Source of the DNA: Octopus sinensis
Taxonomy: Eukaryota
Direction: 5' to 3'
Assembly (NCBI RefSeq): GCF_006345805.1
Contig: NC_043023.1
Coordinates: 12,338,001-12,402,000, forward strand
Length of the DNA stretch: 64,000 nt
Shown: positions 7,060-63,605 of the stretch, piece after piece
How the letters are laid out: each line of letters opens with the position of its first letter
How positions within the stretch are numbered: position 1 is the first letter of the stretch
The notes under the pieces: generated by a model
Database searches by the model: none
Seen by the model: only the letters and a program-made list of their open reading frames with translations
Told to the model about the DNA's origin: nothing
Translations under genes and position numbers: made by a program

Positions 7060-7806
7060 CGAGGAAGGAGAATAATTAGAAGGGAGAGGAAATGACGTCA
7101 GGAAGGCAGAGGTTGAAGATGTCTTTATTCCTACAGTATCTGCGATGATGGTGGGGGCGCAATGGCCCAGTGGTTAGGGCAGCGGACTCGCGGTTTCGAT
7201 TCCCAGACCGGGCATTGTGAGTGTTTATTGAGCGAAAACACCTAAAGCTCCACGAGGCTCCGGCAGGGGATGGTGGTGATCCCTGCGGTACTCTTTCACC
7301 ACAACTTTCTCTCACTCTTACTTCCTGTTTCTGTTGTACCTGTATTTCAAAGGGCCGGCCTTGTCACGCTGAATCTCCCCGAGAACTACGTTAAGGGTAC
7401 ACATGTCTGTGGAGTGCTCAGCCACTTACACGTTAATTTCACGAGCAGGCTGTTCCGTTGATTCGGATCAACCGGAACCCTCGTCGTCGTAACTGACGGA
7501 GTGCTTCCCCCATCTGCAATGATGCCAAGTCGTGTGCCGGGAAACGGCCGCAGAGTAGAATATGTGAGTACGCTTTCTTAAAATAATTTGAAAGAACTTG
7601 AAGGGGAAGTTGTTGATAGAAAGGGACAAAGAAAAACCCTTGAAAGAAACCAATCGCTCAGTAGAGACATCTATTGTAGAATTATAGAATTACAATAGTA
7701 TAAAGGGAAATAACTTCTACAACAGTTCAACCGAGGTCCAAGTAAATTATTAATTAAGGTGCTTAATTACTGAACACTGACTCGTTTATATGTGAATACG
7801 GTAAAT
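7060..7806 (+). promoter_or_regulatory. Putative promoter/first non-coding exon of the 13.9-kb ZNF gene, interrupted by a SINE
   Basis: Homologous to 18215-18645. TGACGTCA at ~7093, degenerate CTCF-like motif at 7663-7677, and donor-like GAATACG|GTAAAT at 7801. Confidence 0.5.
7152..7510 (+). mobile_element. tRNA-derived SINE (family B)
   Basis: GGCGCAATGGCCCAGTGGTTAGGGCAGC...GGTTTCGATTCCC head. A related copy lies at ~37000-37295 on the minus strand. Confidence 0.8.
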
Positions 7807-7820
7807 TGACAAAGGTTTAC

Positions 7821-8523
7821 GGTACTACCAGCGAACAGTGGTCCCGGTGCGCGCACTCGCGATAGCTAGTCGTAAGTAGTCGATCCTACACGAATTTTTA
7901 ACCCTAAACCTAAACCTAGCTCTACTAGCGAACAGTGGTCCCGGTGCGCGCACTCGTGATAGCTAGTCGTAAGTAGTCGATCCTACACGAATTTTTAATC
8001 CTAAACCTAAACCTAGTTCTACTAGCGAACAGTGGTCCCGGTGCGCGCACTCGCGATAGCTAGTCGTAAGTAGTCGATCCTACACGAATTTTTAACCCTA
8101 AACCTAAACCTAGTTCTACTAGCGAACAGTGGTCCCGGTGCGCGCACTCGTGATAGCTAGTCGTAAGTAGTCGATCCTACACGAATTTTTAACCCTAAAC
8201 CTAAACCTAGTTCTACTAGCGAACAGTGGTCCCGGTGCGCGCACTCGCGATAGCTAGTCGTAAGTAGTCGATCCTACACGAATTTTTAACCCTAAACCTA
8301 AACCTAGTTCTACTAGCGAACAGTGGTCCCGGTGCACGCACTCACTCTAGCTAGTTTTAAAAATTACTTCCATCGTGATTTTGTGAATCGCCGTTTTATT
8401 TACTTTGTTTAAAAAATTATTTATTTTGTATTTTATTTACTTTGCTTGGTAGTTGTAGGATCGACTAGTCACGGCTAGCTAGCGCGAGTACGCGCACCGG
8501 GACCACTCTTCTAAAATAGTACC
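7821..8523. mobile_element. GGTACTA-TIR MITE with 97-bp tandem array (~5.3 copies)
   Basis: AGCGAACAGTGGTCCCGGTGCGCGCAC at 7830, 7927, 8024, 8121 and 8218, with a 1-nt variant at 8315. Inverted copy at 8455-8523. Relatives at 18868-19020 and 47463-47945. Confidence 0.8.
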
Positions 8524-8749
8524 CAAATTAATTTACTTGTATGACATGTAACATTTGATCATAGGTTTCCATAAACGACAGATCGGTACTACAAGCGAAC
8601 AGTGGTCCCATTGCGCGCACTCGCTCTAGCTAGTCGTAAGTAGTCGATCCTACAACAACTTTTTAACCCTAAACCTAACCCTAACCTTAGTTTGTTTATA
8701 AAAATAATTTATTTACTTAGTTTAAAAAATCATTTACTTTGCGTTTTAT

Positions 8750-9192: not shown

Positions 9193-9246
9193 AATAATTT
9201 ATTTACTTAGTTTAAAAAATTATTTACTTTGTTCGCTAGTAGTACC

Positions 9247-12929: not shown

Positions 12930-12962
<33 letters not shown>

Positions 12963-12965
12963 TAT

Positions 12966-13240: not shown

Positions 13241-13956
13241 ATATATATATATATGTGTGTGTGTATGGTTGTGTGTCTGTGCTTTATTCCATGGGTATGA
13301 AGACTTAATGCATGTTTTTATTTCATTAGGTCATGTTTGTCTTGGAATGACTGGTAATGTCTGCCTGAATTCTCCTGATAAAACTAATGTAACTCCTCCA
13401 ATAAATTTACAGTTGTGAGTGAAATACCCTAACCACCAAGCCATGCCACTTCACAGGTGAAACAAGTGAAAGGAGAGAAGAGAAAGAAAACAGTTAAATA
13501 ATTAGTGAACTGTTGAAGCGATTCATCAATATACAGAATGTTGTAAAACTTTCAAGGCCTCAATGGATGTCAGTGTTGATGTAAGATTTGCAATGTTGAA
13601 TTACTATGTCGTTTGATGATTCTCTTTATCTCACTGCTTCTTTTTTTCTATTTCAGAATATCACATCATGTTGACGTTAAAGAAATTTCTTCATTTAGTC
13701 ATGCCTCTGATATTTTTATTGACTTTCATCAATTAAAGGAAGACCATATATTAATAAGGCACATTCATCAACGCATCAACTTCTTTGTATAAATGAAATC
13801 TTCAACAAACGATGGGAAAATATTTCTTCTGGACTCTGTAATTAACAGAAACATTTTTGTTTTCTTCACTGTCTGGAATGTAGAGGAGATCATCAATTCA
13901 CAGATTAATTAAGCTTCGAGGAATTATTCTCTAAAAATACTATCCTTGTGATATGT

Positions 13957-14700
13957 ATGACAATTTATTCTCACATAATGAATAATTCCACTAAACCAAA
14001 AATCCCTGATAAAGGAGAGAAGCCATATCACTGTGATGTCTGTGGAAAATCATTTTCTCAAATTGCCAATTTAACTATTCACAAACATATTCATACAGGA
14101 GAGAAGCCATATCACTGTGATATCTGTGGTAAATCATTCACTCACAGAAGTGCTGTAACTGTACATAAACGTACTCATACAGGTGAGAAACCATATCAAT
14201 GTGATATCTGTGATAAATCATTCTCTCGAAGTGCTCACTTGACTGGACACAGACGTACACATACAGGAGAGAAGCCATATCATTGCGAAATCTGTGGTAA
14301 ATCATTCTCTTGTGATACTCATTTGATTTATCACAAACGTACACATACTAGGGAAAGACCATATCATTGTGATATCTGTGGTAAATCATTCTCTCAAAGT
14401 AGGGATTTCACCGAACACAAACGTACACATACAGGAGAGAGGCCATATCATTGTGACATCTGTGGTAAATCTTTCTCTCAAAGGAGTCACTTGACGATAC
14501 ATATACGTACACATACGGGAGAGAAGCCATATCATTGCGATATCTGTGGTAAATCTTTTTCTCAAAGGAGTCACTTGACGATACATATACGTACACATAC
14601 GGGAGAGAAGCCATATCATTGCGATATCTGTGGCAAGTCATTTTCTGACAACAATTACTTGACTAGGCTCAGACGTATTCACACAGGGGAAAAACCATGA
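13957..14700 (+). CDS. C2H2 zinc-finger protein, 8 fingers (last lacks first His); frameshift before 2 further fingers
   Basis: ORF with tandem [17 protein letters not shown] units. First ATG 13957, alternative 13978. Acceptor TTTCAG| at 13656; AATAAA at ~15098-15125. Confidence 0.85.
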
Positions 14701-16310: not shown

Positions 16311-16318
16311 TGTGTGTG

Positions 16319-16790: not shown

Positions 16791-17505
16791 ACAGATACAC
16801 CCGCTTAATTTTACAATAGCTAGAACTTTATTCCTTCCTCCATAATTTTGGTGAAAATTTGAAAAAAAAACGCAGAAAGAAAATCATTGAATCGAATCCC
16901 GCCAGTAAATAATGCCATCTCGGGGAGAAGCGGGGAAATAGAGTCGTATAAAGGGGAATAACTTTAACAGCAGGGGAAAATTTAAATAGTGCTGGTGATT
17001 TAACATCGGGCACTGACCCGTAAGAATACGGTAAGTTGACAACGATCTGTTTTAAAGCTGTAATGATAAAAAGATAGATAAATAATAAGGTAGTTTCCTA
17101 TTTGATGCCCGTAAAATCATAGCGATCCAACAAGTTTATTTTAATAAAACATTTCATTAATTATAAGTGGAACACACTACGAACAATGAATGAAAGGTGA
17201 GGGAAAATGTTTGAGTTATTTTGAATAGAGTTTCGCCCTGGACATATTTGAGAATTGTTCAACAATCCATGGCGATGACACAAAGCAATACAAGTAGCTG
17301 GATCTGAGAAAGATCGAACCAGTATCGTAATTGTAAGGCTTTAATTGATTAAAACGGGAAGCAAGACATGCTAATCGAGTTGAAATGAAATTTAGACTAA
17401 AACAAATTTGATTTTACGGACATCAAATAGGAAATGACCAATAATAATGTTGAATGGCAAAATATATTTCCTCTTCTTTGATAATTACTTTCAAATTGAA
17501 AAGTT

Positions 17506-18214
17506 GGAATCTTTTCGGTTTGAACGGCAGATTTTTAAAATAGTTTCCACTAAACTAAACACTTTTTAAACTTCGTATACTGGTAGAATGTGTTTATAAG
17601 ACATCTTTTTCTCTTGGCTTTATTGAGAAAATTCAATAGTTTGTAAGATATTTGGGTCTTTTCGGTTTGACCGGCAGTTTTTAAAAATAATTTCCACGTA
17701 ACTAAACACTTTTAAACTTCGTTTACTGGTAGAATGTGTTTATAAAACATCTTTTTCTCTTGGCTTTATTGAGAAAATTCTATAGTTTGTAAAATATCTG
17801 GGATCTTTTCGGTTTGACCGGCAGTTTTTTAAAATAGTTTCCACGTAACTTAACACTTTTAAACTTCGGATACTGGTAGAATATGTTTATAAAACATCTT
17901 TTTCTCTTGGCTTTAATTGAGAAAATTCTGTAGTTTGTAACATATTTGTTGTTGTTTTTTTTTCAATTTCTGCAATTTCAACCAATAAATGACGTCTATT
18001 GAGGTAAAAAACATTCTGTGCCGTATCAATATGTCCCTCGTTTAAGATACAGATTAGGTTTATTTACATTTGTGAAGAAAAAAAGATACCCTTCCCACCA
18101 GCCGTAACCCTGAAACAGATTGAAATGCAATAGATCGATACTAGGGTCATAATAATGGGTGACAATTTCATATGACACCGCTAGAAAAAACTGCCGGTCA
18201 AACAGAAAAGATCC
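17506..18214. mobile_element. GGATC-TIR MITE with internal tandem repeats
   Basis: Same family as 4846-5614. Confidence 0.8.
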
Positions 18215-18640
18215 GGAAGGACAATGAGTGGAGAAGAGAGGAAATGACGTTCAGAAAGGACCGGAACTACGACGGCATGACGTCACGTCAGGTAGCCACA
18301 TGTTGAGGACGTCTTCTGTATTACGGTATCTTTGACGGGGTCAAAATATTGCGTTGGAAACGGTCGTAGAGAATATAAGAATATATGAGTAGACTTTATT
18401 AAAATAATCTGGTGAGAATTTGAAAGAACTTGAAGGTGAAATTGTTGATAAAATGGGACAAAAAAAAAAAAAACGGAACGAATTCAACCTGCCAGTAGAG
18501 CCATCTACTGGAGAATAGAAGTACAACCATACCAAGGGAAGTAACTTCTACAACACTCCAAACCACGTGGTCCCTGTAAATTATTAATTAAGGTGCTTAA
18601 TTGCCAATCACTGGCTTGTTTATATCCGAATACGGTAAGT
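18215..18640 (+). promoter_or_regulatory. Putative promoter/first exon of the 21.3-kb ZNF gene
   Basis: CRE-like TGACGTCACGTCA at ~18278, CTCF-like CCAGTAGATGGCTCT (minus strand, 18497-18511), and donor ACG|GTAAGT at 18635. A more diverged copy has its donor at 17031. Confidence 0.55.
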
Positions 18641-19057
18641 TTATAAAGATTTAATTAAAGACTGTATTAATACTATTAATTAATAATTTAAATAATAAAA
18701 TTATGCGAGCCTCTCCAAACGAAAACATTTTATTTTTTAGTATAAAATATTTCAAACTGGATGAATCTTCCTAATTTTTTGCATACTTCATTTATTTTGT
18801 ATATATTTTCCATCTTAATAACTTCCTAAAAAATTAGGTGTCATTTTCGTGCAGAGGTGTGTTTCTAGGTACTACTAGCGAACAGTGGTCCCAGTGTGAT
18901 CACTTTTTAACCCTAAACATAACCCTAACCCGGTACTATTTAAGAAGAGTGGTCCCTGTGCCCGCACTTACTCGCTAGCTAGTAGTGGCTAGTGCATTCT
19001 AAATGTCTACTTAGCGCGAGTGCCACATAGGTTTTTTTTTAACAAAATAAATAATTC

Positions 19058-19621: not shown

Positions 19622-22600
19622 AATAAGTGTCTTCTACTATAGCCCTGAGCTAACTAAACCCTTTTATTTCACATCCACGTAGGGGACGAATCTAAACACA
19701 AAAATGCTCTGAAAGCAACGGGGTTGGGAGAGGCTTTCGGAAAATTCACAAGATCCGATGTTTTTCCCTCGTAACTTTGAGGAAAATATAATCCTTTTGA
19801 AATAACAAATTCAATTTTTCCTCAGGAACTTCTATGCTAAACATCCTTTTGTTAAGGTTCATTCGTTGGTCCCCCTTTCGTTATAACACATGCTGTCAAC
19901 TATAAACACATGAAATATTATCACTAATAATGCTCTCTCGATGCACATACATATTTCTTCTCTGTATTTGTGTGGAATGTAGATAACAAAATCAATGTGG
20001 CAGTTTAAACTTGAGAAAAGCCTTGCATATTTATAATGTCCAAGTTATATAGATGTATGTATGCATTTCTGTGCATGTGTGTGTATGCGGCTAGGGTTCC
20101 TTCTTACCTGCTTCGTTTGTGTATGTAAATTTCTAAGAAGAAAACGAGATCGATGTCAAAAAAGCCGTATTACTGATGATATTTCATTAATTTAGGGCTG
20201 ACAACACGTGCTCTCGTGCTCACTGAAACTAACAAAAGAATCTTGACGAGTCTGAGACTGAAAAACGATTAAATGCCGCTTAACCAAACTGTAGAAGAAC
20301 GAGATGCTGTTGAGCATTTTGTCCGATAAGCAAAGGATTCTTCCTCTAAATAATACACGGTTGACCAGAATCCATGTCTCCCTTGTTCGTTAAATTTATT
20401 TAATATATTATTATTCATTAATACACTTATTAAGAAATAAAATAGTAAATTTAAATAATAAACGAAGCATGCTAGGACAGATGACTAATAATTGAGTCAT
20501 GAATTCTTTCCCTCTCTGTAGGATTATATGAACCCTTCGAAGTTACAGTCATCACATAGAATTAAGAACATAGCAACGTTGAGAAAATATGATTCCTCGT
20601 TTTGGGTATATCAAACATTGGCGATCCTTCGTTATAGGTACCGGAAGTGGCGTTGTTTACATTTTTGAGGATAACAGAAACACTTTTCTCCCACCCCTAA
20701 CACTAACCCCCCATATATATAAAAAAAAACATTTTTTTGAAATGTATCCGGTACCTATACCGAAGTTACTCCCAAATATTGATTTTCTTTTGATTGGCTT
20801 GAGAAAACAAATTTAGGGTGTAGTGCTTGTCATTATGCCAGTCTTTCAATGCCTCAAGGAACTCTGACCCCTAACAACATTTAATAGATGACATTGTTAA
20901 ATTTTGCAACGTTGAATTAGTGTATCATTTAACTATTCTCTTTATCTTGATGTTTCTTTTCCTATTTCAGAATATCACCTTATGTTGACCCACAAGAAAC
21001 TTCTTCATTCAGATGTGCCTTTCATATTTTGACGTTGTTTCATCAACTAAAGCAAGATGACATAATTTATCAGCAGCATTCATCAATACATCAAAATTTA
21101 TATGAATACAATCTAAGAATACAATATTTTTTCTTGTCTTCACTGTTTGGAATGCAGACGAAGTGATTGCCTTACATGTTAATTAAGGTTGGATACCTTT
21201 ACAAACGAGTTGACGATTTTCACCTGCTGATTTAGATATTAATTAAGATCACAGAAGAAAGAAACACAGCTTCAAATTCTTTTCTGGAACTGAAAACAAA
21301 GATGTTTATAGAGATGAAGGAAACATTATTATTGTGATATGTATAATAAATTATTCTGTCATAATGAATAATTCAATTAAACCAAAAGACCCAGATACAA
21401 GAGAGAAACAATATTTCTGTGATATCTGTGGTAAATCATTCTCTCAAAGTTCGAAGGTGACTAGACACAAACGTACACATACAGGAGAAAGGCCTTATCA
21501 TTGTGATATCTGTGATAAATCATTTTCTGACAGCAGTACCTTGACTAAACACAAATATACACACATGGGAGAAAAGCCATTTCAATGTGATATCTGTGGT
21601 AAATCATTCTCTCGCAGTTCAGACGTAACTAGACACAAATGTACACGTGCTGGAGAAAAACCATATCACTGTGATATTTGTGGTAAATCATTTTCTCAAA
21701 ATGGCGATTTAACTCAACACGAACGTACACATACAGGAGAAAAGCCATATCATTGTAATATCTGTGGTAAATCATTCTCTCTAAGGGGTAACTTGACTCA
21801 TCACAAATATACACATACAGGAGAAAAGCTATATCAGTGTGATATTTGTTGTAAATCATTCTCTCAAAGAGGTACCTTGACTGAACACAAACGCACACAT
21901 ATGGGAGAAAGGCCTTATCATTGTGATATCTGTGGTAAATCATTCTCTAAACGTAATGACTTGACTCGCCACAAACTTACACATACAGGAGAAAAGCCAT
22001 ATCATTGTGATATCTGTGGTAAATCATTCCCTCGAAGGAGTAACTTGACTGTACACAATCGTACACATACAGGAGAAAAGCCTTACCACTGTGATATCTG
22101 TGGTAAATCATTCTCTTTTAAGAATACCTTGGCTGAACACAAATATACACATACAGGAGGAAAGCCATATCATTGTGATATCTGTGGTAAATTATTCTCT
22201 CAAAGGAATAGCTTGACTCATCACAAATATACACATACAGGAGAAAAGCCATATCATTGTGATATCTGTGGTAAATCATTCTCTCAAAGAGGTACCTTGA
22301 CTGAACACAAACGCACACATACGGGAGAAAAGCCTTATCATTGTAATATCTGTGATAAATCATTTTCGCATAGGAGTATTTTGACTAGACACAAACGTAC
22401 ACATACAGGAAAAAAGCTATATAATTGTGATATCTGTGATAAATCATTCTCGCGTAGGAGTAGCTTGACTCGGCATGAATATACACATACAGGATAAAAG
22501 CCATACCATTGTGATATCTGTGATGAATCATTTTCTCAAAATTATCATTTAACGAATTTCAGATACATTCATACGAGGGAAAAACCATGTCACTGTGATA

Positions 22601-28952: not shown

Positions 28953-30944
<1,992 letters not shown>

Positions 30945-32619
30945 TCTTCTGTGATCTTAATTAATATCTAAATCAGCAGGTGGAAATTGTCAATTCGTTT
31001 GTAAAGTTATCCAACATTAATTAACCTGTAAGGCAATCACTTCGTCTACATTCCAAACACTAAAGAGAAGAAAAAAATATTGTATTCATATAAATTTTGA
31101 TGTATTGATGAATGCTGCTGATAAATTATGTCATCTTGCTTTAGTTAATGAAACGACGTCAAAATATGAAAGGCACATCTGAATGAAGAAGTTTCTTGTG
31201 GGTCAACATAAGGTGATATTCTGAAATAGGAAAAGAAACATCAAGATAAAGAGAATAGTTAAATGATACACTAATTCAACGTTGCAAAATTTAACATTGT
31301 CATCTATTAAATGTTTTTAGGGGTCAGAATTCATTGAAAGAATGGCATAACGACATAAATGTGTTACACCCTAAATTCCTTTCCTCATACCTTTAAAAAA
31401 AATCAATGTTTAATATACCCAAAACGAGGAATCATATTTTCTCAACGTTGCTATGTTCTTAATTCTATGAGATTATTGTAACTTCGAAGGGTTCATATAG
31501 TTTTACAGCAAGGACCCGAATTCATGACTCAATTATTAGTCATCTTTCCTAGCATGCTTCTTTTATTATTTAAATTTACTATTTTATTTCTTAATAAGTG
31601 TATTAATGAATAATAATATATTAAATAAATTTAACGAACAAGGGAGACATGGATTCTGGTCAACCGTGTATTATTTAGAGGAAGAATCCTTTGCTTATCG
31701 GACAAAATGCTCAACAGCATCTCGTTCTTCTATAGTTTTGTTAAGCGGCATTTAATCGTTTTTCAGTCTCAGACTCGTCAAGATTCTTTTGTTAGTTTCA
31801 GTGAGCACGAGAGCACGTGTTGTCAGCCCTAAATTAATGAAATATCATCAGTAATACGGCTTATTTGACATCGATCTCGTTTTCTTCTTAGAAATTTACA
31901 TACACAAATGAAGCAGGTAAGAAGGAACCCTAGCTGCATACACACACATGCATGTGCTATAACGAAAGGGGGACCAACGAATGAACCTTCACAAAAGGAT
32001 GTTTAGCATAGAAGTTCCTGAGGAAAAATTGAATTTGTTATTTCAAAGGGATTATATTTTCCTCAAACTTACGAGGGAAAAACATCGGATTTTCCAAAGT
32101 CCTCTCCTGACCCCATCGCAAAACATTTCCCCCACAAATTACTTTATAATCGTGACCTATACCGTTTGAAACGTATTTATATAAAATTTCGTTTACAAAA
32201 AAAAGCCTATTTTCCTCAAAGTGACGAGGGAAAACCTTCGGATCTTGTCAATTTTCTGAAGGCCTCTCACCCTCATTGCTTTCTGCACATTTTTCTCTTC
32301 AGATCCCTTTTCTACCCCTTTTTCTTTTCTACCCGTTGCACTATTTCTTTTTCTCGATTTCCTCTCCGGGTAACAACGTCAACCTTACCCTTAAAATTTC
32401 CTTTATACCCCATGTAACAGTGGATTCTAGGTTCCCATAAACCACAGATCAACATTTCAGTTTGGAAGTTCTTCAGACCAACAAATCTATTTTCCTAATT
32501 GTTGTCAGGTTCCCCTTTCCAACTAATTACTCCAACATCCAGAGAAGTTCACAGAAATCTATTATCTTCCATTATCATTAGTAGTATTATTATCATGATT
32601 ACAGCCTTAAAGGAAATCT

Positions 32620-32770
32620 TGATCAACTTACCCGATCCAGATATAAACAACGAGTCAGCGATCAGTAATTAATCAACGTAATTAAGAATTTAATTGGCGC
32701 GAAGATCAAGTGCTGCTGGAGTTGTTTCCCCTTACATAATTATATTACATGACTTCTATAGATGGCGCTA
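32620..32770 (-). promoter_or_regulatory. CTCF-like motif plus first-exon donor cassette
   Basis: TCTATAGATGGCGCT at 32755-32769; ACTTAC (GTAAGT on minus) at 32626-32631. Confidence 0.5.
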
Positions 32771-34536: not shown

Positions 34537-35082
34537 TTATCCTGTATGTGTATATTCATGCCGAGTCAAGCTACTCCTACGCGAGAATGATTTATCACAG
34601 ATATCACAATTATATAGCTTTTTTCCTGTATGTGTACGTTTGTGTCTAGTCAAAATACTCCTATGCGAAAATGATTTATCACAGATATTACAATGATAAG
34701 GCTTTTCTCCCGTATGTGTGCGTTTGTGTTCAGTCAAGGTACCTCTTTGAGAGAATGATTTACCACAGATATCACAATGATATGGCTTTTCTCCTGTATG
34801 TGTATATTTGTGATGAGTCAAGCTATTCCTTTGAGAGAATGATTTACCACAGATATCACAATGATAAGGCCTTTCTCCCGTATGTGTGCGTTTTTGTTCA
34901 GTCAAGGTACCTCTTTGAGAGAATGATTTACCACAGATATCACAATGATATGGCTTTTCTCCAGTATGGATACGTCTGTGACTAGTCAACTGACTATTAT
35001 AAGCGAATGATTTACCACAGATATCACAGAAACATTGCTTCACTCTTGTATCTGGGTCTTTTGGTTTAATTGAATTATTCAT
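34537..35082 (-). CDS. C2H2 zinc-finger protein, 6 fingers (one His->Gln)
   Basis: ORF 34537-35112; [11 protein letters not shown] at ~35082; acceptor at 35487-35488. Confidence 0.8.
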
Positions 35083-45688: not shown

Positions 45689-46880
45689 GTTAATATCTAG
45701 ACCCGCACCCGGTGGAAAAAATGGAAACGCAAATGTGTAACAGTTGTAAGGCATCGTATATTGACGTAATAAGATGGAAAAAAAGGGCGCTGACGAACGG
45801 GGGTGGGGGAGGGGGGTCGGAAGGAGGTGGGGGGGGTCGGAAAATTCCCAGGATCAACCTGGAATCTAAAATGTGTAACAGTTGTAAGGCATCGTATATT
45901 GACGGAATAAGACGTAAAAAAAGGGCGCTGACGAACGGGGGTGGGGTGGGGGGTCGGAAAATTCCCAGGATCAACCGTAGAGGATCCACGCCCAGGTGGC
46001 AAAAATGGAAAAAAATATGTGTAAGAGGTGTAAGGCATCGTATATTGAAGGAATATGACGAAAAAAAAGCGCGCTGACAAACGGGGGGGGAGGGCGCTCG
46101 GAAAATTGCCTACGATTTAAAGAAAAATTTACCATCAATTTTCACCATTTAAACGCATTGTTGGCATAAGGGAAGTAACTCTCTAAAAATCTCTATATAA
46201 ACGGCAGTTTTTCTGTGTGTCTGTCAGGTTGTACCCTCACCCTGACCACGGCTTTCAACCGATTCTGATGAAACTTGACACACACATAGCCCAATGTCAT
46301 AATTCAAAACTAACGCAGCGAAAATTTTGAAAAGTTCCCCCAGTTCTGAAAAAAATCGATAGATTCGACATGGGGTCGAGAATTTCAATTTTTTTGCTAT
46401 TTTCAATATTTTTCAATATTTTTGCTAAAAATGCTTTATAGTTATTTCCCTTACAAACTCGAGCAACGCCGGGCGATACTGCTAGTCTATATATATATTT
46501 TTTTTTATTTTACAAACAAAAAGTGAAAACTGAAGTAATGGAATTTGAATTTTTGAAGTTGCGATTGATAATTATTCTGTGACAATCAATAATATTGGGA
46601 AAATATAATCTGTACTTACCACATGCGTGGTAGATTTGCTGATTATTTTCAACAAATCTACCACGCTTCTATTTCAAATTCTTTAACGTTGTCCTGTGAA
46701 TTTTCCGACCCCCCCCCCACTCCCCCCTTCCGACCCCCTCCCCCCTTCCGACCCCCCTCCCCCACTCCCGTTCGTCAGCGCCCTTTTTTTCCGTCTTATT
46801 ACGTCAATATACGATGCCTTACAACTGTTACACATTTGCGTTTCCATTTTTTCCACCGGGTGCGGATCTAGATATTAACC
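45688..46880. mobile_element. Foldback/TIR element (~170-bp TIRs, G-run subrepeats)
   Basis: GGTTAATATCTAGACCCGCACCCGGTGG... is mirrored by ...CCACCGGGTGCGGATCTAGATATTAACC. The left subrepeat occurs 3 times. Confidence 0.85.
46190..46485 (+). mobile_element. Non-autonomous Helitron nested in the foldback element
   Basis: A|TCTCTATATAAACGGC start; CTCGAGCAACGCCGGG...CTAG|T end, similar to 1084-1451. Confidence 0.65.
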
Positions 46881-47274
46881 TTATTATTATTAGTAGTAGT
46901 ATTATCACCATCACAACTTTAAAGTAAATCTTCGTCAATTTAGCCTCATTAACAACGGGACAACGTTAATTAATATGGTATTCTTCAATCGGTTTCCTCT
47001 CATTCTGCTAATTAATTATGCCACATTACTCTCATTTTATAAATTAATTTCCTTTATATCACATGTAACAGTCGATCATAGGTTTTCATAAACAATAAAT
47101 CAACATTTCAGTTCGGAATTTGTTAATTAAGACGAGCAAATATATTTTCTTAATTGTTGTCAGGTTCCCGCTTCGAAAAATAATTACTGTAACATCGAGA
47201 GGGTCACAGAATTCTATTATTTACCTTATTATTAGTAGTATTATCAACACTATTACAGCCTTAAAGTAAATCTT

Positions 47275-47430
47275 TGTCAACTTACCGTATTCACAAATAA
47301 ACAGCGACTCAGTATTCGGTAATTAAGCACCTTAATTGATAATTAATTGAATGGAGGTTGAAGTGCTGTAGAAGTTATTTCCCTTGTGATAATTCAATTC
47401 CTCAGTTCTCCAATAGATGGCGCTACTGAC
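47275..47430 (-). promoter_or_regulatory. CTCF-like motif plus first-exon donor cassette
   Basis: CCAATAGATGGCGCT at 47410-47424; ACTTACCGTATTC at 47280. Confidence 0.55.
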
Positions 47431-49674
47431 TGGTTGGTTCCCTTTAAAATTTAATTAAACAAGGCACTACTAGCGAATAGTGGTCCCGGTGCGCGCACTC
47501 GCGCCAGCTAGTCATGGTTAGTCGATCCTTACTTTGTGTTTTATTTACTTTACTCTTTTAATTGTTTCAGTTATTCACCGCTTTTAGTCGAGCAAATCGA
47601 CCCCGGGACTTATTGTTGTAAGGATTTGGTCGGCCCGAGGCTATAGTGGAAGACACTTGCCCAAGGTGCCACGCAGTGGGACTGAACCCGGAACCATGTA
47701 GTTCGTAAGCAAGCTACTTACCACACAGCCACTCCTGCGCCTTTGTTTATTAAAATTGAATAAAATTATTTATTTTGTGTTTTTGTGTTTTATTTATTTT
47801 GTTTAACAAAAATTATTTATTTTGTGTAAAAAAATTATTTACTTTGTGTTTCGTTTACTTTGCTAGCTAATCGTTGTAGGATCGACTAGTCACGACTAGC
47901 TAGCGCGGATACGCGCACAGGGACACTTCTTCTTAAGTGGTACCCTTCTTAAATAATGCCTTAATAATAATATAAATAATAGATTTCTGTGAACTTCTCT
48001 CGATGTTGGAGTAATTATTTCGAAGCGGGAACCTGACAACAATTAGGAAATTATATTTGCTCGTCTTAATTAATAACTTCCAAACTGAAATGTTTATCTG
48101 TTGTTTATGGAAACCTATAATCCACAGTTACACGTGGTATAAAGGAAATTAATTATTAAAATGAGAGTAATGAGGCCCTGTCAGGGTATTTAGCTGTCGA
48201 GAGCCATATTAATTAGTGTTGTTAATGAGGCACTGATAAAACGGTAAGTCGACGAAGATTTATTTAAAGGTTATATTAATAATAGTAATGATGATGAGGG
48301 ATTTAAATTTTGGCCCAGGACCAGAAATCTTTGATGCGAGTGAGAAGTCGAACCCATGGAACCCAGTGTTTCCTGAAAGGGATGAAAGGCAAAGTCGATG
48401 TCGACCGTATTTGAACTCAGGACTTTGCGCGCGAAATCGTCATTTAATTTAAATTCATTTCAGGGTCCATAAATAATAATGATGACAAGGAACCTTTTTA
48501 CTTAAGGCACAGGGCCTGTAATTTGATGGGTTGACGTAATTCTATTGTCTGGACCCTAGCTTTTTACTGCTTCGTATTTTATTGACCCCGAAAGGACGAA
48601 AGGCAAAGTGAACCTCGGTGGAATTTGAACTTTCAGGGTAAAAAGACGGACGAGTGTTACATGTGATATGATTAAAGATTTGGCAGATTAACGGTAAATC
48701 GAAATCGTTTGATGTTCGTTACATTTAATTACTACATAATGAGAGAAAAGGTGCCTAATTAATTTTGATAGACTTACTAATTGGTCTGGTGTAAGTACAT
48801 AAATGTGCCCCACCGTCTTTCTTTCCTTGGAACTTTTGGGTTGGTATTTTTTAATGAAATTTTCCATGACTATATTTCGGATGCTGTAGTTTGTGATTAT
48901 ATCCAAATTGGATGTGGAAACCTTTTCTCCGAGACAGTGCTATGAAAAGGAATTTCCTATGATTCACATACCTCTGTCTTCTTTCGTTATAATTTACTGA
49001 AGAAGTTGTGTTATACTGAAAGTTTGTAAAAAGTACTATTCCAGTGTTATAGTTTACGAGTATATTCTACCAGTATACGAAGTTTAAAAGTGTTTAGTTG
49101 ACTAGAAATTGTGTTGACATGTGCCGTTCAAAAGGAAAAGATCCTGCCATTCTTTCAATGCCTCAATGAACTCTGACCCCTAAAAACATTTAATGGATGA
49201 CAGTGTTCATGTTGTAAAATTTGCAACATTGAATTAGTGTATCATTTAACTATTCTCTTTATCTTGATGTTTCTTTTCCTATTTCAGAATATCACCTTAT
49301 GTTGACCCACAAGAAACTTCTTCATTCAGATTTGCCTTTCATATTTTGACGTCGTTTCATCAACTAAAGCAAGATGACGTAATTTATCAGCAGCATTCAT
49401 CAATACATCAAAATTTATATAAATACAATCTAAGAATACAATATTTTTTCTTGTCTTCACAGTTTGGAATGTAGACGAAGTGATTGCCTTACATGTTAAT
49501 TAAGGTTGGATAACTTTACAAACGAGTTGACAATTTCCACCTGCTGATTTAGATATTAATTAAGATCACAGAAGAAAGAAACACAGCTTCAAATTCTTTT
49601 CTGGAAATAGTTACAAAACTGAAAACAAAGATGTTTATAGAGATGAAGGAAACATTATTATTGTGATATGTATA

Positions 49675-51231
49675 ATGAATTATTCTCTCACAATGAATAA
49701 ATTAACTGAAGCAAAAAACGATGATACAAGAGAGAAACAATGTTTCTGTGATATTTGTGGTACATCATTCAATTATAATAGTCAGTTGACTAGTCACAGA
49801 CATATCCATACTGGAGAAAAACCATATCACTGTGATATATGTGATAAATCATATTCTTTAAGTAGCAACTTAACTTAACACAAACGTACACATACAGGAG
49901 AAAAACCATATCATTGTAATATCTGTGGTAGATCATTCTCTCAAAAGAGCCACTTGACTCATCACAAACATACGCATACAGGTGTAAAGCCATATCATTG
50001 TGATATCTGTAGTAAATCATTCTCTCTAAGGGGTAACTTGACTAACCACAAATATACACATACAGGAGAAAAGTCGTATCATTGTGATATCTGTGGTAAA
50101 TCATTTTCTTTAAGTAGCAACTTAACTCAACACAAATATACACATACTAGAGAAAAGCTATATCATTGTGAAATCTGTGGTAATTCATTCTTTCAAAAGA
50201 GTCACTTGACTCATCACAAATATACACATACAGGAGAAGAGCCATATCATTGCGATATCTGTGGTAAATCATTCTCTCGGAGGTGGAACTTGGATCTGCA
50301 CAAACATACACATACAGAACAAAAGCTATATAATTGTGATATCCGTAGTAAATCATTCTTGTGTAGGACTAACTTGACTAAACACAATCGTACACATACG
50401 GGAGAAAAGCCTTATCATTGTGATATCTGTGGTAAATCATTCTCTCAAAGGAGTAACTTTTCTAATCACAAACGTACACATACAGGAGAAAAACCATATC
50501 CTTGTGATATCTGTGGTAAATCATTCTCTTCAAGGAATACCTTAGCTGAACACAAGTATACACTTATGGGAGAAAAGCCTTATCATTGTGATATCTGTGG
50601 TAAATCATTCTCTTTCAAGAATACCTTGGCTGAACACAAATATACACATACAGGAGAAAAGCCATATCGTTGTGATATCTGTGGTAAATCATTCTCTCAA
50701 AATAGCATTTTAACTCATCACAAACGTGTTCATACAGGAGAGAAGCCTTATCATTGTGACACCTGTGGTAAATCCTTTTCTGAACATCGTTGTTTGACTA
50801 ATCATAAACGTATCTGTGGTAAATCATTCTCTGGAAGGAGTACCTTGACTGAACACAAACGTACACATACAGGAGAAGAGCCGTTTCGTTGTGATATCTG
50901 TGGCAAATCATTTTCGTGTAGGAGTCCCTTGGCTCAACATAAACGTACTCATACAGAAGAAAAGCCATATGATTGTGATATCTGTGGTAGGTCCTTCTCT
51001 AAAAGGTGTAACTTGACTAAACACGAGTGTACACATGCAAAAGTAAAGCCGTATCTTTGTAACATTCTCTTATGGGTGCAACTTGATTCAACACATACAT
51101 ACATATACTCTCACACTATCCGCTCAGTCGAAGTCGACTCTCGGTTACTCGATGAATCAGTGTTTTCCAGTCAGTTCTATCCTGGGCCGCTTCTTTCAGA
51201 TTGGCTATGTCCTTTCCGGTATCACTCTTGA
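49675..51231 (+). pseudogene. C2H2 ZNF gene (~16 fingers, several degenerate) with in-frame TAA in finger 2 and a LINE-derived C-terminus
   Basis: ORFs 49663-49878 and 49954-51231 are in the same frame. TAA at 49876 corresponds to CAA in the sister finger (~50128). Acceptor at 49287. Confidence 0.8.
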
Positions 51232-56379: not shown

Positions 56380-57429
56380 TTATCCTGTATGTGTATATTC
56401 ATGCCGAGTCAAGCTACTCCTACGCGAGAATGATTTATCACAGATATCACAATTATATAGCTTTTCTCCTGTATGTGTACGTTTGTGTCTAGTCAAAAGA
56501 CTCCTACGCGAAAATGATTTATCACAGACATTACAATGATAAGGCTTTTCTCCCGTATGTGTGCGTTTGTGTTCAGTCAAGGTACCTCTTTGAGAGAATG
56601 ATTTACCACAGATATCACAATGATATGGCTTTTCTCCTGTATGTGTATATTTGTGATGAGTCAAGGTATTCTTAAAAGAGAATGATTTACCACAGATATC
56701 ACAATGATATGGCTTTTCTCCTGTATGTGTATATTCATGCCGAGTCAAGGTACTCTTTTGAGAGAATGATTTACCACAGATATCACAATGATATGGCTTT
56801 TCTCCTGTATGTGTATATTTGTGATGAGTCAAGCTATTCCTTTGAGAGAATAATTTACCACAGATATCACAATGATATGGCTTTCCTCCTGTATGTGTAT
56901 ATTTGTGTTCAGCCAAGGTATTCTTAAAAGAGAATGATTTACCACAGATATCACAGTGGTAAGGCTTTTCTCCTGTATGTGTACGATTGTGTACAGTCAA
57001 GTTACTCCTTCGAGGGAATGATTTACCACAGATATCACAATGATATGGCTTTTCTCCTGTATGTGTAAGTTTGTGGCGAGTCAAGTCAGTACGTTTAGAG
57101 AATGATTTACCACAGATATCACAATGATATGGTTTTTCTCCAGCATGTGTACATTTGTGTCTAGTTACGTCTGAACTGCGAGAGAATGATTTACCACAGA
57201 TATCACATTGAAATGGCTTTTCTCCCATGTGTGTATATTTGTGTTTAGTCAAGGTACTGCTGTCAGAAAATGATTTATCACAGATATCACAATGATAAGG
57301 CCTTTCTCCTGTATGTGTACGTTTGTGTCTAGTCACCTTCGGACTTTGAGAGAATGATTTACCACAGATATCACAGAAATATTGTTTCTCTCTTGTATCT
57401 GGGTCTTTTGGTTTAATTGAATTATTCAT
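56380..57429 (-). CDS. C2H2 zinc-finger protein, 12 fingers
   Basis: ORF 56380-57459; [11 protein letters not shown] ~57429; acceptor at 57823-57824. Confidence 0.9.
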
Positions 57430-59569
57430 TATGACAGAATAATTTATTATACATATCACAATAATAATGTTTCCTTCATCTCTATAAACATCTTTGTTTT
57501 CAGTTCCAGAAAAGAATTTGAAGCTGTGTTTCTTTCTTCTGTGATCTTAATTAATATCTAAATCAGCAGGTGAAAATCGTCAACTCTTTTGTAAAGGTAT
57601 CCAACCTTAATTAACCTGTAAGGCAATCACTTCGTCAACATTCCAAACAGTGAAGACAAGAAAAAATATTGTATTCTTAGATTGTATTCATATAAATTTT
57701 GATGTATTGATGAATGCTGCTGATAAATTATGTCATCTTGCTTTAGTTGATGAAACGACATCAAAATATGAAAGGCACATCTGAATGAAGAAGTTTCTTG
57801 TGGGTCAACATAAGGTGATATTCTGAAATAGGAAAAGAAACATCAAGATAAAGAGAATAGTTAAATGATACACTAATTCAACGTTGCAAAATTTAACATT
57901 GTCATCCATTAAATGTTTTTAGGGGTCAGAGTTCCTTGAGGCATTGAAAGACTGGCATAATGACAAGCTCTACACCCTAAATTTGTTTTCTCATGCCAAT
58001 CAAAAGAAAATCAATATTTGGGAGCAACTTCGGTATAGGTACCGGATACATTTCAAAAAAATGTTTTTTTTTATATATATGGGGGGTTAGTGTTAGGGGT
58101 GGGAGAAAAGAGTTTCTGTTATCCTCTGAAATGTAAACAAAGCCACTTCCGGTACCTATAACGAAGGATCGTAAATGTTTGATATACCCAAAACGAGGAA
58201 TCATATTTTCTCAACGTTGCTATGTTCTTAATTCTATGTGATGACTGTAACTTTGAAGGGTTCATATAATCCTACAGAGAGGGAAAGAATTCATGACTCA
58301 ATTATTAGTCATCTTTCCTAGCATGCTTCGTTTATTATTTAAATTTACTATTTTATTTCTTAATAAGTGTATTAATGAATAATAATATATTAAATAAATT
58401 TAACGAACAAGGGAGACATGGATTCTGGTCAACCGTGTATTATATAGAGGAAGAATCCTTTGCTTATCGGACAAAATGCTCAACAGCATCTCGTTCTTCT
58501 ACAGTTTGGTTAAGCGGCATTTAATCGTTTTTCAGTCTCAGACTCGTCAAGATTCTTTTGTTAGTTTCAGTGAGCACGAGAGCACGTGTTGTCAGCCCTA
58601 AATTAATGAAATATCATCAGTAATACGGCTTTTTTGACATCGATCTCGTTTTCTTCTTAGAAATTTACATACACAAATGAAGCAGGTAAGAAGGAACCCT
58701 AGCCGCATACACACACATACACAGAAATGCATACATACATCTATATAACTTGGACATTATAAATATGCAAGGCTTTTCTCAAGTTTAAACTGCCACATTG
58801 ATTTTGTTATCTACATTCCACACAAATACAGAGAAGAAATATGTATGTGCATCGAGAGAGCATTATTAGTGATAATATTTCATGTGTTTATAGTTGACAG
58901 CATGTGCTATAACGAAAGGGGGACCAACGAATGAACCTTCACAAAAGGATGTTTAGCATAGAAGTTCGTGAGGAAAAATTGAATTTGTTATTTCAAAAGG
59001 ATTATATTTTCCTCAAAGTTATGAGGGAAAAACATCGGATTTTCCGAAGTCCTCTCCTGACCCCATCGCAAAAGATTTTCCCCACAAATTTCTTTATAAT
59101 CGTGACCTATACCGTTTGAAACGTATTTATATAAAATTTCATTTACAAAAAAAAAGGCTATTTTCCTCAAAGTTACGAGGGAAAACCTTCGGATCTTGTC
59201 AATTTTCCGAAGGCCTCTCACCCTAATTGCTTTCTGCACATTTTTCTCTTCAGATCCCTTTTCTACCCCTTTTTCTTTTATACCCGTTGCACTATTTCTT
59301 TTTCTCGATTTCCTCTCCGGGTAACAACGTCAACCTTACCCTTAAAATATCCTTTATACCCCATGTAACAGTGGATTCTAGGTTCCCATAAACCACAGAT
59401 CAACATTTCAGTTTGGAAGTTCTTCAGACCAACAAATCTATTTTCCTAATTGTTGTCAGGTTCCCGTTTCCAAATAATTACTCAAACATCCAGAGAAGTT
59501 CACAGAAATCTATTATCTTCCATTATCATTAGTAGTATTATTATCATGATTACAGCCTTAAAGGAAATC

Positions 59570-59725
59570 TTGATCAACTTACCCGATCCAGATATAAACA
59601 ACGAGTCAGTGATCAGTAATTAATCAACGTAATTAAGAATTTAATTGGCGCGAAGATCAAGTGCTGCTGGAGTTGTTTCCCCTTACATAATTATATTACA
59701 TGACTTCTCCTATAGATGGCGCTAC
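59570..59725 (-). promoter_or_regulatory. CTCF-like motif plus first-exon donor cassette
   Basis: CCTATAGATGGCGCT at 59709-59723; ACTTAC at 59577-59582. Confidence 0.5.
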
Positions 59726-61304
59726 TCACTGGGGTCAATTTTGATTCTTTCACCCGCAAAATTTTCAATGAGAAAAAAAAAAAATTACGGGTTTTTTACA
59801 GGGTATCAAATATCCTGACCCTTAATATGCTGCAAACCCATCATTTTTGCTCGGAAAAAAGGGTTGGGTGAGAAACTACACCCCATCCCGGAATCACTTG
59901 AATTTTTTTCTTTTTATTGAATGAATTCTGGTGACCTCTTATTATTCCACAAAACCTCTTTCTTTGTGGTTCGGAAGACGGGATGGGGTCTGGTGGAAGC
60001 CTCAGAAATGTCAGCCAACCCGCCACACCAATATTTTTCGCTGTTTCTTTCTCTACCCATTTTTTTTAGATAACATTTGGCAGAAATGTTTTCAAGAGGG
60101 TGTGGATTACATTAAATTGAAAATTGAAAGAAGTTTGAAATAAATAAGTGAAAAATGCAGAACTTATAGAAGTTCGAGTGGTACCGAAGTCAGTGGAGAG
60201 ATAAATAAGGATAAATAATTAATCTAAAGAGAAATGCACGTTAGTTTGTGTATGAAACAACTGAACGTATAATATAAAAATACACATGTAAACACATATA
60301 TATAATATATATAGATATATAAATCAGTAGGAGACTTAGTATCGGCCCTTGCCTTTCCCTTGGATAACACTGGTGACGTGGAGAGGAGAGGCTGGTATGC
60401 ATGGGCGACTGCTGGTCTTCCATAAAGACAACCTTGCCCAGACTTGTGCCGCAGAGGGGAACTCTCAAAGTGCAAGCCCATGGTCAGTGTCTGACCGAAG
60501 AGGGTCTCACACACACAGACTAGACTCACAAAAGACTAGGTCTTGGGACTGATTTCTGCCACTAACACCCTTGAAGGTGGTACTCCAGCATGGCCTCAGT
60601 CAAATGACTGAAACAAGTAAAAGACTATGGAAACAAGGCATTTGAATAACACAGTTAATAGCAGCCCTTTAACAGTGTGTAAGGACATGTAACATCAGCA
60701 TCAAAAGGGTCACCAAGTCCCCAGGTGACAAAAAAATCCCACAACAAGGAGGTGGCCAGTTAGTATTGAACGGGTGTGCCATTGTGCCAGTTGAGAGATT
60801 TAAGGTATAGAGGAGACAGGTCCAGATATTGAGTAACAAAACAAAGACAAAATGGTCTAACTTTTATTCTGATTTTTTATTCATTATTCTTTTCTAGCAA
60901 ATTCCTCAAAATCCAAACACAGGCATTTTTAGCAATCAAGTTAACTCAGAGTCAATATTTTCACAGATTATGACAGGTTTGAGTTTCACACTGATGGTAT
61001 TCAAATTGATGATGGGAAAAACCCTGAATGACAGCTGACAAAACAGACTTCATTGTTGTAATGTTTTAATAAATCCTGGCATTGGTACAGTTACAATTGT
61101 TGTGAATACCCAGGTGGATGGATGTAGCTTTTTTCAAGAGAATGGTTTAGCACAGATGTCACTCTGACCTGGCTTCTCTCCTGTAGGAATGTATTCATTT
61201 ACAGTTAAGTCTATGAGAGAAGGATTTACAATAGATTTGACCATGATGTAGATTTTGTGTGGTATGAAAATGTACATTTGCAAGAGAATGATTTACCTCA
61301 GGTG

Positions 61305-62288
61305 TCACAATGATAATGGCTTTTCTCCAGCATGAATACGTTTGTTACTAGTTAAATCACAATTTGCAGAGAATGATTTATCACAGATATCACAATTATA
61401 TAGCTTTTCTCCTGTATGTGTATATTCATGCCGAGTCAAGGTACTCTTTTGAGAGAATGATTTACCACAGATATCACAATGATAAGGTTTTTCTCCTGTA
61501 TGTGTATATTTGTGATGAGTCAAGCTATTCCTTTGAGAGAATAATTTACCACAGATATCACAATGATATGGCTTTCCTCCTGTATGTGTATATTTGTGTT
61601 CAGCCAAGGTATTCTTAAAAGAGAATGATTTACCACAGATATCACAGTGGTAAGGCTTTTCTCCTGTATGTGTACGATTGTGTACAGACAAGTTACTCCT
61701 TCGAGAGAATGATTTACCACAAATATCACAATGATATGGCTTTTCTCCTGTATGTGTAAGTTTGTGGCGAGTCAAGTCATTACGTTTAGAGAATGATTTA
61801 CCACAGATATCACAATGATAAGGCCTTTCTCCCGTATGTGTGCGTTTGTGTTCAGTCAAGGCACCTCTTTGAGAGAATGATTTACAACAAATATCACACT
61901 GATATAGCTTTTCTCCTGTATGTGTATATTTGTGATGAGTCAAGTTACTACTTTCAGAGAATGATTTACCACAGATATTACAATGATAAGGCTTTTCTCC
62001 TGTATGTGTATATTTGTGATGAGTCAATTTACTCATTTGAGAGAATGATTTACCACAGATATCACATTGAAATGGCTTTTCTCCCATGTGTGTATATTTG
62101 TGTTTAGTCAAGATACTGCTGTCAGAAAATGATTTATCGCAGATATCACAATGATAAGGCCTTTCTCCTGTATGTGTACGTTTGTGTCTAGGCACCTTCG
62201 AACTTTGAGAGAATGATTTACCACAGATATCACAGAAATATTGTTTCTCTCTTGTATCTGGGTCTTTTGGTTTAATTGAATTATTCAT
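61305..62288 (-). CDS. C2H2 zinc-finger protein, 10 fingers plus 1 degenerate finger
   Basis: ORF 61305-62318; ends SANCDLTSNKRIHAGEKPLSL; acceptor at 62682-62683. Confidence 0.88.
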   Translation of the reverse strand: MNNSIKPKDPDTREKQYFCDICGKSFSQSSKVPRHKRTHTGERPYHCDICDKSFSDSSILTKHKYTHMGEKPFQCDICGKSFSQMSKLTHHKYTHTGEKPYHCNICGKSFSESSNLTHHKYTHTGEKLYQCDICCKSFSQRGALTEHKRTHTGERPYHCDICGKSFSKRNDLTRHKLTHTGEKPYHCDICGKSFSRRSNLSVHNRTHTGEKPYHCDICGKSFSFKNTLAEHKYTHTGGKPYHCDICGKLFSQRNSLTHHKYTHTGEKPYHCDICGKSFSQKSTLTRHEYTHTGEKLYNCDICDKSFSANCDLTSNKRIHAGEKPLSL

Positions 62289-63449
62289 TATGACAGAATA
62301 ATTTATTATACATATCACAATAATAATGTTTCCTTCATCTCTATAAACATCTTTGTTTTCAGTTCCAGAAAAGAATTTGAAGCTGTGTTTCTTTCTTCTG
62401 TGATCTTAATTAATATCTAAATCAGCAGGTGAAAATCGTCAACTCTTTTGTAAAGGTATCCAACCTTAATTAACCTGTAAGGCAATCACATCGTCAACAT
62501 TCCAAACAGTGAAGACAAGAAAAAATATTGTATTCTTAGATTGTATTCATATAAATTTTGATGTATTGATGAATGCTGCTGATAAATTATGTCATCTTGC
62601 TTTAGTTGATGAAACGACATCAAAATATGAAAGGCACATCTGAATGAAGAAGTTTCTTGTGGGTCAACATAAGGTGATATTCTGAAATAGGAAAAGAAAC
62701 ATCAAGATAAAGAGAATAGTTAAATGATACACTAATTCAACGTTGCAAAATTTAACATTGTCATCCATTAAATGTTTTTAGGGGTCAGAGTTCCTTGAGG
62801 CATTGAAAGACTTGCATAATGACAAGCTCTACACCCTAAATTTGTTTTCTCATGCCAATCAAAAGAAAATCAATATTTGGGAGTAACTTCGGTATAGGTA
62901 CCGGATACATTTCAAAAAAATGTTTTTTTTTATATATATGGGGGGTTAGTGTTAGGGGTGGGAGAAAAGGGTTTCTGTTATCCTCTGAAATGTAAACAAA
63001 GCCACTTCCGGTACCTATAACGAAGGATCGTAAATGTTTGATATACCGAAAACGAGGAATCATATTTTCTCAACGTTGCTATGTTCTTAATTCTATGTGA
63101 TGACTGTAACTTTCTGCACATTTTTCTCTTCAGATCCCTTTTCTACCCCTTTTTCTTTTATACCCGTTGCACTATTTCTTTTTCTCCATTTCCTCTCCGG
63201 GTAACAACGTCAACCTTACCCTTAAAATATCCTTTATACCCCATGTAACAGTGGATTCTAGGTTCCCATAAACCACAGATCAACATTTCAGTTTGGAAGT
63301 TCTTCAGACCAACAAATCTATTTTCCTAATTGTTGTCAGGTTCCCGTTTCCAAATAATTACTCCAACATCCAGAGAAGTTCACAGAAATCTATTATCTTC
63401 CATTATCATTAGTAGTATTATTATCATGATTACAGCCTTAAAGGAAATC

Positions 63450-63605
63450 TTGATCAACTTACCCGATCCAGATATAAACAACGAGTCAGTGATCAGTAAT
63501 TAATCAACGTAATTAAGAATTTAATTGGCGCGAAGATCAAGTGCTGCTGGAGTTGTTTCCCCTTACATAATTATATTACATGACTTCTCCTATAGATGGC
63601 GCTAC
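63450..63605 (-). promoter_or_regulatory. CTCF-like motif plus first-exon donor cassette
   Basis: CCTATAGATGGCGCT at 63589-63603; ACTTAC at 63457-63462. 63113-64000 duplicates 59233-60120. Confidence 0.5.

Follow-up and report, generated by a model that had tools for sequence, protein, structure and literature searches.

A shared non-coding 5′ module with a used splice donor and a CTCF-like site in an expanded octopus C2H2 zinc-finger gene family

Most C2H2 zinc-finger (ZNF) genes in a 64,000-nt stretch of the Octopus sinensis genome carry, upstream of their coding exons, a recurrent cassette in which a CTCF-like site stands at a near-fixed distance from a splice donor. The stretch, called the window here, is G000:C27:12338001-12402000; its positions are counted from its first nucleotide. 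We consider it probable that the cassette forms the 3′ portion of a non-coding 5′ exon and includes its donor, that the family inherited it by whole-gene duplication, and that it is spliced to the acceptor exon, the site within it being slowly evolving, dispensable, and likely regulatory or insulating. The family-wide 5′ module is real and apparently undescribed, and whole-gene duplication explains most of its features. To the question of how cephalopods regulate their greatly expanded C2H2 genes, our work brings a concrete family-wide 5′ module with a donor in use. Taken by itself, the finding is an ordinary outcome of whole-gene duplication.

The window contains eight exons in which an acceptor is followed by C2H2 sequence, as well as one fragment, on both strands. 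All eight acceptors, of the form TTTCAG/AATATCAC (a slash marks the splice boundary), and all seven cassettes proposed in an initial annotation were recovered by sequence check, and a hidden Markov model (HMM) built from the seven copies found no eighth full cassette in the 64 kb. Six of the eight acceptors have their own cassette, and the one at 20970 has two in tandem; those at 35487 and 49287 have none. The copies at 32.6, 59.6, and 63.5 kb are duplicates of 94-98% identity and are not independent. Recurrence of the cassette was borne out, but its proposed length of ~150 bp was too short: in intact copies homology reaches ~100-300 nt upstream where no insertion intervened, and downstream it continues into the intron, ~300 nt of which are conserved and contain a second donor-like copy. 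The spacing between motif and donor, proposed as ~125 bp (107 at 16.9 kb), is indeed near-fixed; counted between the last letter of CATCT and the donor, it measures 128-131 nt (110 at 16.9 kb). The donor G/GTAAGT, ascribed to every copy, is replaced by G/GTAAAT at 7.7 kb, while copies 3 and 4 read GTAAGT.

Each acceptor exon opens with 321-405 non-coding nucleotides that have stops in all three frames, followed by a likely ATG. In the window's genes, the complete coding sequence (CDS), from ATG to stop, lies within this single exon. The choice of first exon would therefore alter only the 5′ untranslated region (UTR) and leave the protein unchanged. In every gene, the segment before the likely ATG (20971-21363 and its paralogs) contains 7-10 upstream ATGs, which could reflect translational control or a further unseen intron. 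When the N-terminal 60 residues encoded by the 20971 gene were compared with known proteins, the highest-identity named protein among the best 120 of 672 matches was an Octopus zinc-finger protein (73%), and most of the matches listed were generic finger matches. Comparison of the window's ZNF protein with a protein atlas led to generic C2H2 clusters and nothing else. Given this N-terminal match, we take the window to belong to the octopus C2H2 clusters already known (PMC9068888).

The tie between cassette and ZNF genes extends well beyond the window. Genome-wide, a 25-nt donor pattern gave 34 matches, a 19-nt motif pattern 28, and an acceptor pattern 94, each against 0 for the reversed control, so that chance does not explain the recurrence; a 14-nt donor word gave 220 matches against 73 for its control. 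A DNA search of the 2.72-Gb genome gave 333 first-look candidates, 40 of which were scored. From the donor-word matches and these candidates we estimate, without counting, a family of ~150-300 cassettes. Stretches picked around cassette or acceptor matches, 1,064 kb including the window, were then available for closer inspection; counts on acceptors and on the CTCF-site background refer to the first 864 kb. As proposed for the window, the copies point at a downstream ZNF exon: 75 of 77 full cassettes have one on the same strand within 12 kb, stretch-edge cassettes with <7 kb of room and no ZNF having been left out beforehand. Viewed from the acceptors (n = 81), the nearest upstream feature is a same-strand cassette in 61 cases, an opposite-strand cassette in 11, another exon in 5, and a stretch edge in 4. 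The order of cassette, acceptor, and finger array recurs on chromosomes C1, C2, C4, C6, C15, and C28, making seven with C27, the window's own; all six other chromosomes examined carry the cassette at ZNF loci, with unplaced scaffolds partly covered. On C10, the 14-nt donor word has two matches, both with neither a cassette nor a ZNF. The initial annotation had suggested a genome-wide search for ZNF association, and its result is a cassette tied to ZNF genes and not scattered in the manner of a dispersed transposon; the genome-wide matches, too, gather at ZNF loci. Because of the pairing with downstream exons, the recurrence on six chromosomes, and the 61 of 81 acceptors, we regard the cassette as part of a duplicated gene unit.

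Transcript evidence bears on the use of the donor. Contigs of runs X1, X3, and X7 (three studies, presumed RNA by a program's guess and none on record as RNA) and of the DNA-like run X16 (~76% read) were placed on 62350-63750 at 82% likeness. A minus-strand joint between 62681 and 63463, which spans a 781-nt intron with GT..AG ends and is one of the junctions put forward in the initial annotation, is present in contigs of X1 and X3; it was seen neither in X7 nor in the ~76% of X16. Loose ends carrying the family junction AATACG/AATATC (gene strand) occur at 63469 in one, three, and four contigs of X1, X3, and X7, respectively, and at 62658 in three contigs of X7, with none in the same portion of X16. 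Together, the joint and these loose ends show that the cassette donor is used across the family. Each cassette is likely spliced to the acceptor exon of its own gene. Cover falls to near zero at 63525-63618 in X1, X3, and X7 and continues there in X16. The 82% likeness cut confounds this drop, which hints only weakly, if at all, at a start ~60 nt above the donor. At a second locus (43700-50000), contigs of X1, X3, X4, and X7 were swamped by repeats, and the absence of 47286-44018 from the 15 of 106 joints listed is no evidence either way. In one X1 contig, the acceptor follows directly on sequence from ~240 nt into the conserved intron block (window 63226 to 62682), which suggests that some paralogs have a further donor. 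We rejected an internal-exon arrangement with the acceptor TAATTAAG/G: the AG is absent in copies 4, 6, and 7, and contigs of a motif-less subfamily, described below, read through.

Within the cassette, the element of greatest regulatory interest is the CTCF-like site. The CTCF matrix scan suggested earlier was run with an approximate vertebrate matrix and finds the motif CTCF-like, with 63 of 74 cassettes at p ≤ 1e-4 and 45 of the 74 at p ≤ 1e-5. Among the seven window copies, the score is poor at 7.7 kb, moderate at 32.6 and 16.9 kb, and good in the other four (15.0-17.9 bits). Of 95 sites at p ≤ 1e-5 in the 864 kb, 46 fall in cassettes, which cover ~2% of that DNA. The textbook-like form previously quoted for the motif, TAGATGGCGC, is not the usual one; CCAATAGATGGCTCT is commonest, and GCGCCATCT is found in 6 of 66 representatives. 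Two main variants have the cores AGATGGCTC and AGAGAGCGC, and the best variant is AGATGGCGC.

Rates were estimated on 66 representatives (<97% identity, mean pairwise 72%), the motif analysis combining site rates with tip-level counts. Relative to the intron (1.00), the 19-mer evolves at 0.69 and the donor, the slowest part of the alignment, at 0.44. The rate is 0.49 at the eight most informative CTCF columns versus 0.88 at the other cassette columns (p = 0.001), and it drops with information content (rho -0.54, matched by 1.4% of 802 other windows); the information-weighted rate lies in the lowest 4% of windows. At least 7 bits are kept in 83% of representatives, compared with 32% when drift is simulated in a simple way that takes no account of kinship. 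CTCF binding is plausible because the matrix score is good and change at the informative columns is about half as fast as in the others; to us, the chance that the bound protein is CTCF appears even. CTCF and subunits of cohesin have been reported from coleoids, as have CTCF-like motifs at the borders of domains or at loop anchors (PMC9023564, PMC13652810, PMC10658181). In a squid, CTCF and cohesin genes are reported along with a CTCF-like motif at domain borders (PMC9023564), and motif lists in the supplements of PMC9023564 and PMC13652810 may be informative on the CTCF motif of cephalopods.

The cassette appears to be embedded in a longer 5′ module. Upstream of the motif lies a purine tract, with a donor-like GAATAT/GTGAGT ~100 nt before the motif. 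Beyond this upstream donor, intact copies have a GC-richer module (e.g., 18205-18436) with words that we take to be cAMP response element (CRE)-like and ETS-like. In its ancestral form, the module would have comprised, in order, a CRE/ETS-type promoter, a weak donor, the purine tract, the CTCF-like site, GGGAAATAAC and TAATTA blocks, the main donor, and a conserved intron with a second donor. Whole-gene duplication would have carried it to every gene of the family, and duplications, inversions, and mobile-element insertions would have left different subsets of it in different genes. The CTCF-like site likely helps regulate its gene or insulate it, perhaps against the mobile elements nearby, and the common module could bring about co-regulation across the family.

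Many cassettes that have no upstream module nearby adjoin a repeated element. A repeat of ~400 nt with inverted ends, resembling a miniature inverted-repeat transposable element, is very often found 60-250 nt upstream of the cassette (19030-19620 and many flanks), where it displaces or replaces the promoter-like module. Conversely, ZNF genes at C1:136833298-136833517 and C27:12095511-12095720 have the CRE/ETS module and no cassette, and such genes may splice from the upstream donor.

One subfamily has lost the site by a clean deletion that left the upstream module and the donor intact. The deletion junction is present in 47 exact copies, a lower bound, at C27:12.50-13.02 Mb (12500629-13016489), 100-600 kb from the window. 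These run as 32 copies on the plus strand followed by 15 on the minus strand, and their acceptor is often duplicated ~330 nt downstream. By a rough open reading frame (ORF) rule, 7 of 9 motif-less cassettes with a downstream ORF lead to at least eight fingers, compared with 50 of 61 motif-bearing ones. The CTCF-like site is dispensable. Behind 63516, 30 loose letters in X1 and X3 match the motif-less subfamily exactly (6 places, none elsewhere); these ends continue for 246-255 nt, of which the 30 letters are visible, and would have the CRE/ETS module in reach if collinear. Although they are no proof, these ends suggest transcription of the subfamily and an exon 1 that can begin in the CRE/ETS module. 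If so, the motif position would lie inside exon 1, for example in the 18.5-kb copy. With ~50 adjacent paralogs that lack a CTCF-like site beside many that have it, the locus offers a natural experiment that bears on CTCF action at spiralian promoters.

Several observations weigh against a family-wide non-coding first exon with a regulatory CTCF-like site. First, of 83 cassettes, only 20 (13 that have the motif part and 7 that lack it) have the CRE/ETS module within 1.2 kb, and most promoters are therefore unexplained. Contigs cannot show transcription starts, so the terms first exon and promoter are used here provisionally. Second, the splice joint is one contig per run with a short side of 29 nt; since near-identical paralogs exist and the examined DNA contains four donors of the GATCGG type, the joint is not assignable to one gene, and copy 4 or 6 could be its source. 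Third, 11% of other 19-column windows are equally slow overall, as are, approximately, three other cassette blocks (0.57-0.69). Finally, the CTCF count matrix is approximate and derived from vertebrates, copies without the motif end of the cassette were left out of the rate estimate, and the examined regions were picked by cassette matches.

The site could instead be a genuinely conserved promoter or 5′ UTR element bound by another factor, such as YY1 or one of the family's own ZNF proteins, with an incidental likeness to CTCF; we treat this as a tentative but serious possibility. In 16 of 66 representatives GA replaces TG in the core, so that an A stands where the matrix has its most invariant G (an A is present at this near-invariant position in 17 of 66), and a T is found in 35 of 66 where the matrix wants G/A. 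Only 4 matches to the perfect CTCF 16-mer occur in 2.7 Gb, and several adjacent blocks are equally slow. YY1 itself fits poorly (CCGCCAT in 1 of 66, GCCATNTT in 0 of 66, GCCAT in only 38 of 66), and the two main motif classes depart from the matrix at different positions while each retains ~12.5 bits.

An unlikely account is that the site has been carried along neutrally: the ancestor would have chanced to hold a CTCF-like word, and recent duplication together with gene conversion would have kept all 5′ regions alike. A single ancestral origin does account for all copies, a large subfamily does without the site, 11% of the other windows are equally slow, and the HMM that selected the copies includes the site. 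Yet the copies average 72% identity and still exceed simulated drift in keeping 7 bits, with the kinship proviso given above, and the information-weighted rate is unusually low.

We find it improbable that single ZNF promoters are looped to a common enhancer by CTCF bound at every cassette, leaving each cell with a random subset of the genes expressed, in a layout like that of the protocadherin (Pcdh)-beta genes rather than that of Pcdh-alpha/gamma. One site at a fixed donor distance in most genes (63 of 74 at p ≤ 1e-4), a constraint that tracks the CTCF information profile, the concentration of strong sites in cassettes, the squid CTCF/cohesin genes and border motif (PMC9023564, as available), and the single-exon, one-site organization of Pcdh-beta (PMC7811963, as available) all agree with such choice. 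The protocadherin-like architecture proposed in the initial annotation is not supported, however: there are no constant exons, the sites are not co-oriented (21+/17-, with nine strand switches in 464 kb, versus the uniform Pcdh orientation), and at least 47 tandem copies lack the site although sequence of their subfamily is present in presumed RNA contigs. In addition, the commonest variants have two departures from the matrix, and no enhancer with opposed sites was identified in the 864-kb matrix scan, the extent of the search. A bolder version would have an octopus array of 150-300 ZNF genes, each with a CTCF-bound 5′ module, from which CTCF/cohesin looping picks a cell-specific subset, independently of vertebrate protocadherins, and from which a recently amplified subfamily of ~50 genes escaped by site deletion; it strikes us as a long shot. 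That the cassettes go back to a dispersed transposon inserted near ZNF genes can hardly be credited, for although mobile-element-like repeats adjoin many copies and the first-look candidates are numerous, 35 of 44 DNA-search matches lie on the window's chromosome, copies on six others sit at ZNF genes in sense orientation, nearly all full cassettes aim at a ZNF exon, and homology extends into the intron.

The features of the window are collected in Table 1. Tandem cassettes before one acceptor, found at 16.9 and 18.5 kb and in several places elsewhere, could act as alternative first exons; copy 2 is likely one. Head-to-head ZNF pairs with a single cassette between them account for 11 of 81 acceptors, at window 47437-49287 and 10 other places. 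In the window pair, the 49287 partner retains the intron block and has lost the cassette; 2 of the 11 have an upstream module on their own strand. By sequence, these pairs may reflect either bidirectional use or loss of the cassette from an inverted duplicate. An inverted duplication of 3825 nt with 100% identity (19301-23125 and 41864-45688) places one ZNF gene under two different cassettes, those at 18.5 and 47.3 kb, and may stem either from a promoter swap in the very recent past or from an error of assembly. A 3.4-kb GT-rich minisatellite with a 23-25-nt unit (9216-12630) lies within the intron of the 13656 gene. Right behind a ZNF exon lies a fragment of reverse transcriptase resembling a long interspersed nuclear element, presumably of the RTE family, as an inverted duplicate pair at 51116-51610 (-) and 27314-27667 (+).

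Table 1. Features of the 5′ modules and ZNF exons in the window
Feature	Position	Strand	Remarks
Upstream promoter-like module, split by insertion	7051..7604 (pieces 7051-7149, 7508-7604)	+	ends in donor-like GAATAT/GTGAGT
Cassette copy 1	7650..7824	+	degenerate CTCF-like site, 3.8 bits; donor AATACG/GTAAAT
Acceptor exon and ZNF CDS	13657..14700	+	ATG 13978, 240 aa, 7 fingers
Cassette copy 2	16898..17060	+	diverged subfamily, 9.9 bits; tandem with copy 3 before one acceptor
Intact GC-richer promoter-like module	18205..18436	+	CRE-like TGACGTCA, ETS-like CCGGAA; candidate transcription start region
Cassette copy 3	18484..18664	+	CTCF-like site 18493-18511, 16.2 bits; donor AATACG/GTAAGT at 18634
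Acceptor exon and ZNF CDS	20971..22497	+	ATG 21364, 377 aa, 12 fingers
Acceptor exon and ZNF CDS	28953..31220	-	ATG 30827, stop after 186 aa; more fingers in separate ORF
Cassette copy 4	32602..32778	-	7.4 bits; 3-nt deletion next to site; donor GATCGG/GTAAGT
ZNF gene without own cassette	34537..35486	-	ATG 35082, 181 aa, 5 fingers
Acceptor exon and ZNF CDS	42492..44018	-	ATG 43625; identical inverted duplicate of 20971 gene, different cassette
Second donor-like partial copy of cassette 3′ end, in first intron	46873..46967	-	sequence comparison
Cassette copy 5	47256..47437	-	best CTCF-like site of the window, 47410-47428, 17.9 bits; donor 47286
Conserved first-intron block with second donor (48243), 49287 gene, own cassette gone	47960..48300	+	sequence comparison
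Acceptor exon and ZNF sequence	49288..50974	+	ATG 49693, early stop after 61 aa
Acceptor exon and ZNF CDS	56380..57822	-	ATG 57429, 349 aa
Cassette copy 6	59553..59732	-	15.0 bits; donor 59583
Acceptor exon and ZNF CDS	61305..62681	-	ATG 62288, 327 aa
Cassette copy 7	63433..63612	-	15.0 bits; donor 63463

It is useful to compare this organization with known systems. In the Pcdh-alpha and -gamma clusters, variable exons are spliced to constant exons (PMC7811963). In contrast, each octopus ZNF gene has its own acceptor and a complete CDS, and the first exons are the near-identical part. The likeness is closer to Pcdh-beta, whose members are single-exon genes with one site each (PMC7811963), since the octopus genes are independent single-coding-exon genes in tandem. 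The 5′ region of most members has a CTCF-like element at a near-fixed distance, which recalls protocadherins; in the octopus it stands 110-131 nt from the donor, and at least 47 copies lack it. However, only the one gene, one site aspect of Pcdh-beta holds, and not in all genes, because of the large subfamily that lacks the site. Moreover, all Pcdh promoter CTCF sites face one direction, towards opposed enhancer sites (PMC7811963), whereas the octopus sites flip with the strand of the gene, also in other examined regions (9+/6- and 5+/2-). Cephalopod protocadherins for their part diversify through full-gene duplication (PMC9068888).

The window resembles the large tandem C2H2 clusters reported from coleoids (PMC9068888; PMC12513265) in its tandem C2H2 genes and in the N-terminal match to an Octopus zinc-finger protein. 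The available text of these two articles makes no mention of CTCF and does not describe a shared non-coding first exon; the words exon, UTR, upstream, and motif have no occurrence in that of PMC12513265. Supplements aside, no description of the 5′ module was found in the available text of the literature searched. Another parallel comes from the FiNZ-ZNF genes of zebrafish, whose description (PMC10547256) does not mention CTCF. These are hundreds of tandem ZNF paralogs, each with a small upstream exon and one exon for the finger array; a single morpholino targets 447 of 684 through the likeness of their 5′ ends, and subsets have a common promoter architecture (PMC10547256). The FiNZ upstream exon is coding, whereas the octopus exon is non-coding and no accessory domain precedes the fingers. 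With their shared 5′ exon and their promoter types, the FiNZ-ZNF genes are nonetheless a closer analogue of the octopus family than the protocadherins are.

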